Sequence record: PP418986.1 | Origin: Escherichia phage UPWr_E2 | Reading direction: 5' to 3' (one strand) | Length of the DNA: 64,000 nucleotides | Shown: one piece after another, positions 2,793 to 36,670 of the stretch | How the letters are laid out: each line of letters begins with the position of its first letter | Position numbering within the stretch: the first letter of the stretch is position 1 | Made by a program: the position numbers and the translations under genes | The notes under the pieces: model-generated | What the model was told of the DNA's origin: nothing | The model's database searches: none | The model's input: the letters and a program-made list of their open reading frames with translations, nothing else

Positions 2793-2957
2793 ATGAAAAC
2801 ATATAAAGAATTTATTAAAGAAGATATGGTTGCTGGAGATTCAGGTGGTAATCCTGAAAATATCTCTACTGGAACAACATCAGGTGCTGTAGTAAATAAA
2901 GGTCCTGAACAGATTCCTAAAAAGAAAAAAGAGGAATCTAAAGAAAAAGAAGAGTAA
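2793..2957 (+). CDS. small acidic/lysine-rich protein (54 aa)
   Basis: ORF below 60 aa, not in the supplied track; ATG 2793, stop TAA 2955-2957; immediately upstream of gene 61. Confidence 0.4.
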   Translation: MKTYKEFIKEDMVAGDSGGNPENISTGTTSGAVVNKGPEQIPKKKKEESKEKEE

Positions 2958-2960
2958 AGA

Positions 2961-3989
2961 ATGTCATCAATAGCTTGGATTGATAATGAGTTTGCATATC
3001 GTGCATTAGCTCATTTACCTAAATTCACACAAGTAAATAATAGTTCAACTTTTAAATTACGGTTTAGATGCCCAGTTTGTGGAGATTCAAAAACCGACCA
3101 AAATAAAGCGCGTGGATGGTATTATGGTGATAATAATGAAGGAAATATTCATTGTTATAACTGTAACTATCATGCGCCAATCGGAATATATTTAAAGGAG
3201 TTTGAACCTGATTTATATCGTGAGTATATCTTTGAAATAAGAAAAGAAAAAGGTAAAAGTCGTCCAGTAGAAAAACCTAAAGAACTTCCTAAACATCCTG
3301 AGAAGAAAATAATTAAATCTCTTCCGTCATGTGTTAGATTAGATAAACTGGCGGAAGACCATCCAATTATAAAATATGTAAAAGCTCGTTGTATTCCAAA
3401 GGATAAATGGAAATATCTTTGGTTTACAACCGAATGGCCTAAATTAGTTAATAGCATAGCACCGGGAACATACAAAAAGGAAATTTCTGAGCCTCGTCTT
3501 GTTATTCCAATTTATAATGCTAATGGAAAAGCTGAGTCTTTTCAAGGACGTGCATTAAAGAAAGATGCTCCTCAAAAATATATCACCATCAAAGCTTATC
3601 CTGAGGCAACAAAAATATATGGAGTCGAACGAGTTAAAGATGGTGATGTATATGTTCTAGAAGGACCTATAGATTCACTTTTTATTGAAAATGGTATAGC
3701 TATTACGGGTGGTCAATTAGACCTAGAAGTTGTTCCATTTAAAGATAGACGAGTGTGGGTTTTAGATAATGAGCCTCGTCACCCTGACACTATCAAGCGA
3801 ATGACTAAATTAGTTGATGCAGGAGAAAGGGTTATGTTTTGGGATAAATCTCCCTGGAAATCAAAAGATGTTAATGATATGATTAGAAAGGAAGGTGCAA
3901 CCCCTGAACAAATTATGGAATATATGAAAAATAATATTGCCCAGGGGTTAATGGCTAAAATGCGGTTATCTAAATATGCCAAGATTTAA
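2961..3989 (+). CDS. 61: DNA primase gp61
   Basis: 342 aa; Cys-rich zinc-ribbon region (CPVCGDS...CYNCNYH); matches T4 gp61. Confidence 0.95.
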   Translation: MSSIAWIDNEFAYRALAHLPKFTQVNNSSTFKLRFRCPVCGDSKTDQNKARGWYYGDNNEGNIHCYNCNYHAPIGIYLKEFEPDLYREYIFEIRKEKGKSRPVEKPKELPKHPEKKIIKSLPSCVRLDKLAEDHPIIKYVKARCIPKDKWKYLWFTTEWPKLVNSIAPGTYKKEISEPRLVIPIYNANGKAESFQGRALKKDAPQKYITIKAYPEATKIYGVERVKDGDVYVLEGPIDSLFIENGIAITGGQLDLEVVPFKDRRVWVLDNEPRHPDTIKRMTKLVDAGERVMFWDKSPWKSKDVNDMIRKEGATPEQIMEYMKNNIAQGLMAKMRLSKYAKI

Positions 3990-29974: not shown

Positions 29975-30631
29975 TTATTTAGCCCTTCCTAATATTCTGG
30001 CCGCCTGAGCACATATTGATTCAAGGCGGTCATTACTTATATGATCATTTCTATACCAGTACATGGTTATCGTTCCAGCATAGATATTATCCAAATTAAA
30101 ATATGGACAACTGTACATGTAGTTTATTTCGGGAGTAGGCTTTTTAGTTGGTAAAAAAGCAAATTTTGAGTCGGAATAATAATGACGTCCATTTAAATGA
30201 ACTGTATATTCATCCATAGTTTTATCAACAGGATATCCTCCAAGTGATTTTTCACTTATTGTTGAAGGTAATTTTCCTTCATATGCTATAATATCAACAA
30301 AATAGTTTAAGTTTTTAGGGCGGAAAGAATACACCGCACTAAAGTCTGCCTCAGATGATATATGAACTATCTGGAGTTGTTCCAGGGCGACAGATTCAAA
30401 GCGTGCATTTCTTTCCTTTTCAATAATTTCACTGTATGTTTCATACTTTGATTGCTTATAGTACTCAAAGAAACTATCTCCCCTATACCAAACAATCGCC
30501 ATCATAAATAAAAGAATTACGACAGCTACCCGGGAAGCAAGAACTTTCCCGGTAGCGTTATCTTTGAACAAGCGATCTAGAACACCAAATAGAATATCAG
30601 AGGGCGAAAATGATATTCTAGGTGCTGCCAT
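29975..30631 (-). CDS. t: holin T
   Basis: 218 aa with single TM segment after a short N-terminus; matches T4 holin in size and position. Confidence 0.9.
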   Translation of the reverse strand: MAAPRISFSPSDILFGVLDRLFKDNATGKVLASRVAVVILLFMMAIVWYRGDSFFEYYKQSKYETYSEIIEKERNARFESVALEQLQIVHISSEADFSAVYSFRPKNLNYFVDIIAYEGKLPSTISEKSLGGYPVDKTMDEYTVHLNGRHYYSDSKFAFLPTKKPTPEINYMYSCPYFNLDNIYAGTITMYWYRNDHISNDRLESICAQAARILGRAK

Positions 30632-30662: not shown

Positions 30663-31460
30663 TTATACTCTTGGACCATATATTACTCCAACATTTTGCC
30701 AAGTTGGAGCAGATCCTATGACAGCATAACCTGCTGCTCCTCCTGCACCAACCTTTAGAACTTTACCACCATCAGACCAGGCATTTTGTCCATTTCCTCC
30801 GGCATCGCCGCCCTGGCCAGAGTGAGCATTTCCGTATTGGTAACCACCTCCTGGGGCGACGTATGAAGCTGCGCCACCTGAGTAACCACCGCCACCACCT
30901 GGGCCAAATGGTCTTCCGCCGCCACCACCAATATCTTGCCAGTCTGCCCCTGAGTGAACACGGTAAGCAATGCCGCCACCACCGCCTCCGCCACCACAGA
31001 TTACTCCACCATTGTTAATTCTTAATCGTCCACCAATGTCGTTTTGAATACAATGCCCGCCTTGTTGTCCATTACCATCTCCACCGGAATGAGTCCATCC
31101 ACCTTGTCCACCTCTACCCCACATATGAGCGCCAATAATATTTAACTGAACATATTCATTTGGTGTATCTCCGTACATGAAGAATAAAGGAACATCTTTA
31201 GAATATGATACTAAATCACCTGTAATATTAAACACTATAGGTGCATTACCTGCCTCAAAACATCTATCTCGGAACCATTGACCATTGAAGTTATGGTCTG
31301 CTCCAAGCGTGTGAATAATTTCTCGTGAGCGACCTGCAAATTGACTCATCCAGCAAGGAACACCCAATCTTAATTGACCAGCCGCTTGACTCATCCAGCG
31401 CTGTCCTGTTTCATTTGCGGCTGAACTTCCAATCCAACCAGGAACACCAACTACTGCCAT
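30663..31460 (-). CDS. 38: tail-fibre adhesin gp38 (T2-type, glycine-rich motifs)
   Basis: 265 aa with repeated poly-Gly islands (GGGGGGGG, GGGGG) separating variable segments; immediately downstream of gene 37. Confidence 0.85.
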
Positions 31461-31472
31461 AATTTATACTCC

Positions 31473-31492
31473 AAAGGGGGCATTTCCCCCTT
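31473..31492 (-). promoter_or_regulatory. intercistronic stem-loop between 37 and 38
   Basis: GGGGGAAATGCCCCC hairpin between gene 37 stop and gene 38 SD. Confidence 0.4.
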
Positions 31493-31496
31493 GTTG

Positions 31497-32741
31497 TTAG
31501 AATTTAAAATATTTACTAATTTTGCGAGCAATTTTAGTAAAGAAAGGAGTTTTCAATTCTTTAATTTCTTCACTCATTTCCTGAATAGCCTTAATTAAAA
31601 GAGCATTCACAGCAGAGTTAGAAATTGTCAGAACATCAGATCCATCAACTTCAACTTTAGATACAGCTTCCGGTAATTCCTTTTCAAGGTCCTGAGCAAT
31701 AATACCAACTTCACGTTTAATAACACTACGGTCTTTAATAGACTTAACTTTATCGTAAATATAAACTTTCAGTCGACATACTTTTTCAAGTGCTCCGTTT
31801 TCTAGCTCTTTTTTATTAATCTTAAGACGACCATCGGAACGAATATACACATCGTTAAAGTTACCATTACCAGGAGAATAGAAAGTACCGTCGTAATGAA
31901 ATTCAAATACCGCGTTAGGGTGTCCAGCCGCTGGCGATGCCTCCGCAGATCCAACACGAATAGTTGCTTGCCCCCAATTGTTAGGGACACGACGAATACC
32001 AAGATCGACGGCAGTTACAAACCCTTGATTGGTGATTACACTTCTTCCTTTGAGAATCGGATAATAACAATCCTGTGAAACATAACCATGATCGACGAAT
32101 ATTGGTGCTTCTACTCGCCATTGGTTGCCCCAATCACCCGGTTGTCTAGCAATCCATCCAGAACCGTTAATGTGTACACGATCGCGGTTAACGTTAACCA
32201 TTGCGATATTTTGTGGATTTAGCGAAATCTCACCATTGTTTGTGATATGTACTGCCGCCTGAGTAGCATAGCTATAAAATGCTAGCGAATTATCAGCACC
32301 ACCCTTACCAATATACCAGTTACCACTCCCGTCTACGTCACCACGAATATGCAAAGCATTACCAGCAGTTGTTGATAATACAATAGAATCACCCGGACGT
32401 TTAATAATCAATCTACCTTCGGATTCAATTTCACCAAAAAATTTAGTCTTAATTGCACCAGTCGCTAAAGTACGTTCAGTGGAAAAATGAACGCCTTTGC
32501 TGTCTTCTAACTGAATAATGTTATCGCGCGCATTATTACTATCACCCCAATGATTAAACCGGAAATAATCACGTGATTGCTTACCACCCGCTTCAAACGT
32601 CAGCGTACCTTTACTTAAATTAACATCACCGCTAAAGGTAGCAGCAAGAGAATCACGTTCTAATTTTAAAACGTTAGCACCACTAGTACCACCTAAAGTA
32701 ACATCACCAGTTCTCAATTCATAACGGAAAGGTCTAATCAC
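31497..32741 (-). CDS. 37: long tail fibre distal subunit gp37, C-terminal reading frame (disrupted gene)
   Basis: 414-codon frame; first ~116 residues re-encode the duplicated segment [12 protein letters not shown]...IIKRPGD. Confidence 0.6.
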
Positions 32742-33084
32742 CCGGACGTTTAATAATCAATCTACCTTCGGATTCAATTTCACCAAAAAATTTAGTCTTA
32801 ATTGCACCAGTCGCTAAAGTACGTTCAGTGGAAAAATGAACGCCTTTGCTGTCTTCTAACTGAATAATGTTATCGCGCGCATTATTACTATCACCCCAAT
32901 GATTAAACCGGAAATAATCACGTGATTGCTTACCACCCGCTTCAAACGTCAGCGTACCTTTACTTAAATTAACATCACCGCTAAAGGTAGCAGCAAGAGA
33001 ATCACGTTCTAATTTTAAAACGTTAGCACCACTAGTACCACCTAAAGTAACATCACCAGTTCTCAATTCATAACGGAAAGGTCT
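32387..33084. repeat. perfect 349-bp direct tandem duplication (2 copies) inside gene 37
   Basis: Copies 32387-32735 and 32736-33084 identical at every position on manual comparison. Confidence 0.9.
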
Positions 33085-34833
33085 ATTTGTATTATAGTTT
33101 CCATTTTGATCATCTTCGTTGGTGGAAAGAATATAAAGATTCTCTCCATAAGTACGGAAAATTGTACCAAAATTTCCGGCATACATACGGAATGCATTAG
33201 ATGAGCGAAATTTAACTTCTGTTTTAAAAGTGGTAGTGTTATTAAGGTTAACAGTAGAGTTAAAATTGGTAGGAGCACCGAAGTTAACAGCACCATTAAA
33301 ATCTTGTTGAGCTGTCCATGTGTGGCAACCATCTTCAAGAACAACACGGCGGACTGTGCAAGTTCTATTTCCAGAATTACCGAACACACTAACGACAAAA
33401 TAACGGTAGTTTGTCTGGGATACAGTACCACGCCAAACCTGAACAGTACGTCCTGTGCTAGTGTGCTCGCTAGGACCAACAGAAAACATAATTAAGTTTC
33501 CGTCAATCGTACCCCAATCCATATTAGCTGGCATGTTCTTTATTTTGTTCAAAGGAACGCTAAACATACTACCAGGAACAAAATCAAATGTTTGCCAGTC
33601 TAACTCTGCTAAGTTAGATTTAATACCACCCATACCCAAAGTAATTGGAAGAGAGTAAGATGTATATACTTCGTTCCATGTACCCCAAACACCGCCGGTA
33701 TATGCACGCTCAAAAATACGATCGCGGGTAGTTGCACCTGTTCCGGCAGTAGTAAATTTTTGGAAAATAGCACCACCAGAAGCACGCTGTTTAACTTCCA
33801 GCAAACCAACAATAACGGTTGGTAAACCTTCACCTGTAGGACAGTTAATAACGGCATCAGTGCCTAAAATGTTATATAACCCAGGAGCTTTAAAATCATT
33901 CAGGTCTCCGTCATAGAAAGTCGCCGGTGTGACATTACCGACTTGTTGCCACGGTCCCCATTTAGGCGCAGATGCATCCCATGCAGCAGCAAGACAGCGA
34001 GTATAAACAACACCAAATCTGGTCGTATATCTCTGTGTGCGAGAATAGTTTCCACCTTCATATACTTCTAAAAGTCCTTGAGCTGACAATCCTTCTTCTG
34101 GGAAATTTCTGTCAAAGGTAGCAATGGAATTTGAACCATTTCGCCACAAACCAAGGTGTTCAGCGCCTCCTAGATCATTAAGATCAATCGTTGTTGACAG
34201 TGGACGAGTACCAGATTGAATATTTCGCCACGCACTCCACGGACCGTTTACTCCGTTCCATGTAGCAGTCAAGGAACGAATATAAACATTTCCGTATCTA
34301 GTTGTATATCTCTGAGTACCAGCAAATTGACCGGCCACAAATACTTCTAGAACACCTACAGCATTTTCTTCTGGAAATTTATTTGCTGGTTGAGCGTTGG
34401 TTGAAGTTGTTTTCGACCAAACTCCAAGATATTCTTCAACAGGCCCATACTCATCTAAATTAGCATCAACAGGTAATTCGCCGTTATTTTTTATAAACGT
34501 TGTGCTATTGACATTTATGTCAGATGGAGTTAGCGTGATATCTTTTGACCCATCAAAGGATATACCATTAATTTTTCGTGCTGTTTTTAATTTCGTTGCA
34601 GTTGCAGCGTTACCTGTTAAATTTCCAATTATGTTTCCATTAACAGTTAAAGAACCATCAATTGTTCCTCCATATTTTAAACCTAATTCTATAACACTAC
34701 CTGAGTCATCTTTTGTGAAAATTGTTTTATCTTTTAAGTTTATAGCCAATTCACCTTCGGCTAATACTGAAGCAGCAGGACGTTGACCTGCAGTTTTGCT
34801 TCTTTTAAATTGTATTTGTTTTAAAGTAGCCAT
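32734..34833 (-). CDS. 37: long tail fibre distal subunit gp37, N-terminal reading frame (terminated by frameshifting duplication)
   Basis: 699-codon ORF starting next to gene 36 stop; ends ...IIKRPGD* at the duplication junction. Confidence 0.65.
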
Positions 34834-34841
34834 AAGTCCTC

Positions 34842-35492
34842 TTAATAATAGCCGAAATCTTGAACAGAATCCTTAATTACGATTTGGTCAAATCGTGGAA
34901 CGTGTGAAGGTTGAGATGCAGGATTCTGTGAAAAAAGGTTTGGCGCAGTTAAATTTCCTGTCATAGTGTCTCCAGAGCGTAATACCCTAGAGTTTGCATT
35001 TGCTGTAACAGTATTTATTGCTCCATCAACATAATCTTTACGAGTAACATCAGATGCTGCGGAAGGAGTAGATGTAACAGTTACAGATGGAGCCGTTACA
35101 GCTTTGGTAAATGTTGTCAAACCTTCTGGCGTAATCGTAATTTGTCCAGTAGTGATTTCACTACCTGCTGGTCTAAAACTAATACCGCCAGAAGAGCCAC
35201 CAACTACAAGAGTATTACCAGTGCCGCCACCAGAACGAATTCGGATGGGGGTTTCATTATTACTTAATTGAAGATAACTATTTACCCCGTAATTAATAGT
35301 AATTGGACCGGTGTAAGTACCACCATTAGCTTTAGAAACGAAATCGTTATCAGCTGCCTGCGGTTTATTATATTCTGAATATATTTTAAATGATTTGTAG
35401 AGTACATCGTCACCGGCTGAATTCAATGGAAAATTTCCTTGATGCCAAATGACAGATCCACCCACAGTTGAACCTACTTTTAAATCAGCCAT
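34842..35492 (-). CDS. 36: long tail fibre subunit gp36
   Basis: 216 aa beginning [23 protein letters not shown]; T4 gp36-like. Confidence 0.9.
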
Positions 35493-35554: not shown

Positions 35555-36670
35555 TTAAACTTCTCTAAATTCCTGTCCAAACACTTTGCCAGTTTTAGAA
35601 GAGGCTTGTGTAGGAAGTACCATTATATCTGGAGGTGAAGCCGATTCACAGACATAATTAACGCGAATACCGTTGACGCCAAATTCGGCAGGTTTTGAAA
35701 TGCCGCCATTTCTTGATACTTCAGAAAAACTTAAATTTCTCATGCCGCCTTGACCTGCTTGAGCAGTTCTTTGTGCATATATCGTAAATCCTACTGCATT
35801 TTCAGGAACAACTACATAATCTTCTTTTAATTCCCAAGACCCAGCTTGCCCAGTAAACTCAGCTTGGGTCGAGGAAATATATCCATTTGATGCATCATAA
35901 AAACGAATAGATATATTTGTAGTTCCAAGATCAAGTAAATCAGCATCAGCATATAGTTGTGCTTTAAGATAAAGAACATCACCAGGAATTAAATTGTAGT
36001 CAGAAAGTTTACTTATAGCAGCTGAAGTTGGCAATCGCGCAATTTCATTATTAGTTCCTCCAACCGCAGACATAAATTGCTCAACGCTTTCGTATGTTCT
36101 TTTAGGAAATCCTGTAGCTCCGACGTCTTCTAAACTATCAAATACAACATCTAAAATAGTTTGATAATCATCTGTGCTTTTTCTATTACTTAGTTTAACA
36201 TGCTCTAATGCAATAACTCTTTTAGAAGAAGTATAAAAAGCAGCATATGACACGTCAAATCTTGACAATACTGAATCTGATGGAAAAACTGAAGTTCCTG
36301 CTCCCCTTAACCAAGATACCACTTCAGGAGGAAAATTAACCTTTCCGCTAGTTAATATAGCAACAAGTCTATTGTTTGACAAAGAATTCATGAAACTGAC
36401 AAAAGCGGCAGATGTTGTATCGTTTGAAGCAGAAAAAGCATATGACTTGCTATCAACTAATGCTCCCGTAGAAGGGTCAAAAACTCTTAAATGAAGACCT
36501 GCACTAAATGTTTGATTTCCAACGGGATTATCCTGAAATTTAACATATGGCCCCGCAGTAGAAAGCGGGCAAGAACCCGCTATGCTTATTTTATATCTTA
36601 CTGAATTGCTTTCCGATAAAAATGGCGTTTGGACATATCCTTGTCCAAACTCTGCCATAAATTTTTCCAT
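35555..36670 (-). CDS. 35: long tail fibre hinge protein gp35
   Basis: 371 aa; between 34 and 36. Confidence 0.9.
   Translation of the reverse strand: MEKFMAEFGQGYVQTPFLSESNSVRYKISIAGSCPLSTAGPYVKFQDNPVGNQTFSAGLHLRVFDPSTGALVDSKSYAFSASNDTTSAAFVSFMNSLSNNRLVAILTSGKVNFPPEVVSWLRGAGTSVFPSDSVLSRFDVSYAAFYTSSKRVIALEHVKLSNRKSTDDYQTILDVVFDSLEDVGATGFPKRTYESVEQFMSAVGGTNNEIARLPTSAAISKLSDYNLIPGDVLYLKAQLYADADLLDLGTTNISIRFYDASNGYISSTQAEFTGQAGSWELKEDYVVVPENAVGFTIYAQRTAQAGQGGMRNLSFSEVSRNGGISKPAEFGVNGIRVNYVCESASPPDIMVLPTQASSKTGKVFGQEFREV

Follow-up and report, generated by a model that had tools for sequence, protein, structure and literature searches.

A tail-fibre gene which, on gene order and sequence identity, is gene 37 of a T4-like phage, encoding gp37, the long tail fibre's distal subunit of T2/T6 type, carries in the window (the whole stretch of 64,000 nucleotides that was analysed) a perfect tandem duplication of 349 bp that splits its reading frame in two. 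The most probable explanation, to which we give roughly 85%, is that the second copy is an untrimmed overlap between contig ends, an artefact of assembly or finishing, in which case gene 37 of the real phage is intact. The preliminary description of this DNA had offered either a recent, unstable duplication or an assembly artefact. The latter has gained from a precedent in the record of the related phage vB_EcoM-G3G7, from the break in the reading frame and from the junction having no match in the public collections searched, and the former has lost ground.

The two copies, at window positions 32387-32735 and 32736-33084, abut and are the same base for base on direct string comparison, as had been claimed. 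Tandem Repeats Finder places the array at 32387-33085 with a period of 349, 2.0 copies, 100% matches, 0 indels and a score of 1398, and a separate repeat search also recovers a two-copy array of 349 bp; this pair is the sole tandem array with a score of at least 100 in the 64-kb window. The copy number is exactly two, at 100% identity and without an indel, and a perfect repeat of this length cannot have arisen by chance. Beyond the copies, identity runs on at one side only, by 1 base, and the microhomology at the junction of copy 1 and copy 2 is likewise 1 base, no more than expected by chance. The sequence reads CCGGGTGATT up to the junction and AGACCTTTCCG after it, and can also be written as AAACGTCCGGGTGATT followed by AGACCTTTCCGTTATG.

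Since 349 is 3 x 116 + 1, the duplication destroys the frame of gene 37, whose structural product is essential. The preliminary description had a frame of 699 residues starting at 34833 and ending in IIKRPGD, with a further frame of 414 codons at 31497-32741, and the list of open reading frames agrees on both (ORF1 and ORF2 in Table 1). It had also placed the stop two codons into the next copy, which needs correcting, as the TAG is formed by the junction itself: its T is the final base of copy 1 (32736) and its AG the initial two bases of copy 2 (32735-32734). The uninterrupted frame of about 995 codons expected of gp37 is absent as written (699 + 414 aa) and present only after removal of one copy; deleting one 349-bp copy in silico yields a single ORF of 995 aa, as had been anticipated. 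Pfam finds Gp34_trimer at residues 522-587 of ORF1 and nothing else there, and in ORF2 it finds gp37_trimer at 122-176 and Peptidase_S74 at 302-360 (2.1e-11), neither of which is found in ORF1. Because Peptidase_S74 and the C-terminus sit in ORF2, ORF1 is left without the folding domain and the adhesin-docking tip, and the earlier statement that gp37 as written loses its C-terminal part holds. Pfam describes Peptidase_S74 as a chaperone, and the domain drives trimerisation of such tail fibres. The GTG of ORF2 lies 5 nt upstream of the TAG of ORF1, the two frames overlapping at GTGATTAG (GTG ATT AG / GAT TAG). When the sequence at the junction was read, no Shine-Dalgarno sequence was found 5-10 nt upstream of this GTG and no slippery heptamer at CCGGGTGATTAGACC, and the sole matching landing codon able to restore the frame is 349 nt distant.

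Table 1. Repeat copies, reading frames and neighbouring tail-fibre genes, in window coordinates.
Feature	Position	Strand	Basis or remark
Copy 1 of the 349-bp unit (first in gene orientation)	32736..33084	-	codes for gp37 residues 584-699; frame correct
Copy 2 of the 349-bp unit, identical to copy 1	32387..32735	-	in the correct gp37 frame via ORF2 only
ORF1 (699 aa), covering the N-terminus and shaft of gp37	32734..34833	-	ORF list; without the C-terminal chaperone domain
ORF2, 414 aa, mechanical GTG start	31497..32741	-	repeats residues 584-699, then continues to the true gp37 C-terminus
TAG stop from the copy 1/copy 2 junction (T, then AG), closing the 699-aa ORF	32734..32736	-	read from the sequence
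gp38, glycine-rich T2/T6-type adhesin capping the processed gp37 tip	30663..31460	-	Pfam GP38 1.2e-66 and Gp38_N
gp36, hinge connector of the distal half fibre	34842..35492	-	synteny, Pfam
gp35, long tail fibre proximal connector	35555..36670	-	synteny
Holin t, downstream of gp38, marking the end of the cassette	29975..30631	-	PF11031, synteny

To place the split gene, we considered its neighbours and its closest annotated counterparts. The frames in the window follow the order gp34-gp35-gp36-gp37-gp38-holin t, the same order as in the annotated PYps55T and, by Pfam labels, in the MZ234 phages. Window 31400-34900 shows 99.8% DNA identity to Yersinia phage PYps55T (MT515756, Tequatrovirus ecombl75), in which gene 37 is one 995-aa CDS annotated as tail fibre. 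The gp37 restored by removing one copy differs from that of PYps55T at 7 of 995 residues, and its length of 995 aa matches the proteins of PYps55T, PM108 and G3F8 as well as the restored protein of G3G7. The hallmark of the T2/T6 type is also present, namely a C-terminal Peptidase_S74 (in ORF2) followed by a separate gene for a glycine-rich gp38; in phages of this type gp37 loses its C-terminus by cleavage, and the gp38 adhesin caps the tip (PMC3157838). The original assignment to tail-fibre gene 37 is thus upheld by the synteny of the cassette together with the 99.8% identity to PYps55T.

The junction itself was sought in public collections. A 40-mer centred on it occurs in none of 50,697 phage records and none of 5,426 complete E. 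coli genomes, and a junction 32-mer is missing from IMG/VR, from the GTDB genomes (one per species) and from the JGI metagenome contigs. Exact-protein look-ups likewise gave no record of the 699-aa product of ORF1 or of the window's gp35. At the junction every close relative aligns in two pieces with a span of 350 bp, so that each has one copy. In the 60 best gene-37 relatives the 349-bp segment is single-copy without exception (60 of 60), and a query carrying one copy is collinear with 58 of the 60, the exceptions being G3G7 and UPWr_E4, which have other duplications in gene 37. We also considered an ancient duplication or domain repeat and rejected it, given the zero divergence between the copies and the absence of the arrangement in relatives.

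The first of these exceptions, vB_EcoM-G3G7 (MZ234040, Tequatrovirus ecombl75), carries within gene 37 a perfect duplication (2 x 127 bp) that breaks the frame; the repeat lies at 2848-3103 of MZ234040.1 63616-67894, and the gene is annotated as two CDS (G3G7_132/133). The 127-bp unit is exactly the top k-mer of SPAdes, and the length of the record minus 127 equals the length of the sister isolate G3G6, 168,522 bp. The isolate is wild type; its MiSeq 2x300 reads were assembled with SPAdes 3.13/3.14, and its plaquing host range of 49% was the joint-highest in its study (PMC8614997). The G3G7 record begins at base 1 of a CDS, indicating that it was rotated after assembly. As G3G7 forms plaques, which would be impossible with a broken gene 37, its 127-bp duplication is very likely an end overlap moved inside by rotation and left uncorrected in the public record. 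The repeat described here resembles that of G3G7 in being a perfect, abutting, two-copy and out-of-frame repeat that splits gene 37 into two ORFs, in the same species and with single-copy relatives. It differs in its unit, which is 349 bp and not the SPAdes k of 127, so that another assembler or a manual join has to be assumed.

The second exception, UPWr_E4 (PP418987), has a perfect duplication of 2 x 153 bp in gene 37, at 2250-2556 of PP418987.1 62939-67236; it is in frame, and the encoded gp37 is 1045 aa long as against 994-995 aa. UPWr_E4 is a close relative, and its repeat resembles ours in consisting of two perfect tandem copies within gene 37 and in having a junction homology of 1 bp, but it is in frame, is contained in one annotated CDS and would allow the fibre to function. 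It may be a real duplication of the shaft or one more artefact. The junction homology is 1-2 bp in all three duplications (349, 127 and 153 bp). Neither the G3G7 record nor that of HP3 has a terminal overlap at its ends. The circular record of HP3 (KY608967.1) has its origin within the hypervariable part of gp38, adjacent to gene 37, and is thus a further assembly opened within the host-range cassette.

An end overlap could have come to lie within gene 37 in the following way. Genomes of the T4 type, being circularly permuted, assemble as a circle, from which the assembler outputs a linear contig with overlapping ends. If such a contig were rotated to a conventional start, or two contigs were joined, without trimming, the overlap would turn into a perfect internal tandem duplication; in this assembly the closure point would have fallen in gene 37. 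The real phage would then have a single gene 37 of 995 codons and a normal T2/T6-type distal half fibre, made up of a shaft, a Peptidase_S74 intramolecular chaperone at the C-terminus, lost by cleavage, and a tip that carries the gp38 adhesin as its cap. Base 1 of the window aligns to base 31,996 of six records (MZ234030/34/36/37/39/40), among which that of G3G7 was checked for a start at a CDS, and to judge from this alignment the source record probably uses the same rotated start as the MZ234 records, which would make the window its positions 32,001-96,000. Because rotation moves an end overlap into the interior, a shared start convention would supply the step that the artefact needs. We infer that the source record underwent rotation once assembled and that the junction is crossed by no read. 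The phage was grown and sequenced, and its consensus should therefore not carry a duplication that destroys gene 37. Published guidelines for phage assembly state that contigs may exceed 100% of the genome and that duplicated regions should be checked (PMC8785237). The unit of 349 is not a standard de Bruijn k (the maximum in SPAdes is 127), and this counts against an artefact, which would require an overlap-type assembler, over-extension of a path or a manual join of contigs; the length is compatible with overlap assemblers or with a manual join of reads of 250-400 nt. A low-quality long-read assembly was rejected as the source, as the single 1-bp indel relative to PYps55T across 39 kb speaks for high base quality. 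A contig break at a variant site was rejected too, the window-specific SNPs lying at gp37 residues 482/503 and 841 and the borders of the unit at 584/699.

Outside the repeat, the window was compared with PYps55T. From 25 to 64 kb there are 13 SNPs, one single-base indel and two in-frame indels in gp38, and the right 39 kb are 99.96% identical. Each of the 13 SNPs changes a residue in whichever open frame over it is longest, although two of these frames are short and perhaps not genes; one SNP lies in gp35 and seven lie in gp37, where all are nonsynonymous. Six of the seven gp37 changes are derived in this lineage (A142T, S233G, S249L, R482S, R503C and I841T), and since every one of the six is nonsynonymous, gp37 is evolving fast here. 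The substitutions look as though the long tail fibre had recently come under selection, perhaps during host-range adaptation in the laboratory. In the neighbouring gene, gp38 has in-frame deletions of 3 and 9 nt relative to PYps55T, at window 30974 and 31114. The gp38 protein is 100% identical to that of MZ234036/MZ234051 and related phages, and exact matches occur in MZ234 phages only; the adhesin allele is thus held in common with E. coli phages and not with PYps55T. The left part of the window (1-25000, from uvsX/41 to rIIA/rIIB) is a mosaic with about 97% identity to PYps55T and the MZ234 phages, with peaks of divergence at 6-7, 16-17 and 22-24 kb, and by these comparisons the phage looks like a recombinant. 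The single-base indel is a 1-base deletion relative to PYps55T at window 61527, in the A-run GATGAAAAAGTT, towards the 3' end of a small homologue of PYps55T_042, so that one of the two records has altered C-terminal residues.

It is conceivable, although we consider it unlikely, that the repeat is a genuine and very recent tandem duplication carried by a substantial fraction of the sequenced population, defective and transient. Such an event would come from illegitimate recombination or replication slippage during T4-type recombination-dependent replication, and its carriers, having no functional distal half fibre, would survive by complementation in mixed infections or by reversion through homologous recombination. 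The zero divergence between the copies is consistent with a very young event, the in-frame 153-bp duplication of UPWr_E4 may be real, and the seven of seven nonsynonymous differences in gp37 together with the mosaic left third suggest a recently selected or bred lineage, possibly a mixed population. Tandem duplications in tail-fibre genes do arise and reach high frequency under selection, as in EfV12-phi1 (PMC6365445) and, reportedly, in T4 gene 37 (Tetart 1996). The present duplication, however, is out of frame and costs gp37 both its chaperone domain and its adhesin-docking tip, so that it would be deleterious with no evident advantage and would not be expected at consensus frequency. Deletions and duplications in T4 reportedly occur, for the most part, at short direct repeats (Singer and Westlye in 1988 and Tetart in 1996 are said to have found this), and the homology at this junction is only 1 bp. 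The junction is unmatched in five public collections, and the nearest analogue, the 127 bp of G3G7, is accounted for by its assembler. A further variant, that the duplication is genuine and also tolerated, with full-length or two-piece gp37 still being made, is scarcely credible. Translation would have to pass the junction by termination and reinitiation at GTGATTAG, or by frameshifting or bypassing as in T4 gene 60, the classic case of translational bypassing, and the product would be a fibre whose shaft contains a 116-residue segment twice, or else one that is split. The overlap of the ORF1 stop with the ORF2 GTG does have a geometry able to support translational coupling, and an in-frame duplication of 51 shaft residues is apparently tolerated in UPWr_E4, if that record is correct. 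Set against this, the GTG has no Shine-Dalgarno sequence before it and the junction no slippery heptamer; an N-terminal fragment lacking Peptidase_S74 is unlikely to fold or to join a separate C-terminal fragment; and the arrangement would be a chance product of the junction, without evolutionary history and missing from all relatives. The bypass gap in T4 gene 60 is 50 nt, and a bypass of 349 nt would be far longer. A programmed frameshift or bypass of the gene 60 type was accordingly rejected, there being no slippery site, a landing codon 349 nt off and a junction found in no relative.

The distribution of these duplications does not sit easily with the artefact explanation. The perfect repeats of 349, 127 and 153 bp are all found in gene 37, a gene that makes up 1.8% of the genome, and such a repeat is present in 2 of the 60 closest relatives. 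Together with the HP3 origin in gp38, three cases within a gene of 3 kb amount to clustering beyond what random closure points would give, and this counts against an artefact. A plausible account of the clustering is that lysates may vary at the host-range cassette and that graph assemblers would open the circle there. One could instead suppose that gene 37 of this Tequatrovirus clade is a real hot spot at which tandem duplications arise spontaneously, whatever their length, the clustering being biology and the out-of-frame cases, such as the 349-bp unit, persisting abundantly in lysates as an off-state of the long tail fibre that reverts fast by recombination and serves as a switch or reservoir for host range, but we regard this as very improbable.

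If the second copy is an untrimmed contig-end overlap, the deposited sequence misrepresents the host-range gene of a therapeutic-type T4-like phage, and pipelines will split or pseudogenise gp37, so that comparisons of receptor-binding proteins and machine learning inherit a truncated protein. At least one GenBank record (MZ234040) would then contain an error of this kind in gene 37 as well. If the duplication is real, lysates of T-even phages can hold defective tail-fibre duplications at high frequency, which would bear on the origin of host-range variation; there is little support for this. The 349-bp repeat thus serves mainly as a data-quality flag for its own record and for MZ234040.

The repeat was also compared with duplications described in other phages. 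Searches of the literature on tandem duplication of gp37 and host range, and on illegitimate recombination in T4, gave no usable match, and those for G3G7 or UPWr_E4 by name gave incidental mentions only. Of the hallmarks of an adaptive duplication, a unit that is a multiple of three is absent here (349 = 3 x 116 + 1), as is a repeat motif or microhomology at the junction (1 base). Tetart, Repoila, Monod and Krisch are said to have reported in 1996 that duplications in T4 gene 37 are in frame, involve the C-terminal adhesin domain, originate between short motifs that recur (His boxes) and widen the host range. The repeat described here is like those host-range duplications in that it is tandem and lies in a T-even phage's gene for the distal tail fibre. 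It is unlike them in that its unit is out of frame, covers shaft residues 584-699 and has 1 bp of homology, in a T2/T6-type gp37 with a separate gp38 adhesin. In the Enterococcus phage EfV12-phi1, in-frame tandem duplications of 1.8 kb arose repeatedly in the long tail fibre gene under selection during coevolution, and they were confirmed by coverage, PCR and MinION reads (PMC6365445). The present case shares with EfV12-phi1 the perfect tandem copies in the long tail fibre gene of a myovirus, the copy number in EfV12-phi1 being unstable, and differs from it in having a unit that is out of frame.
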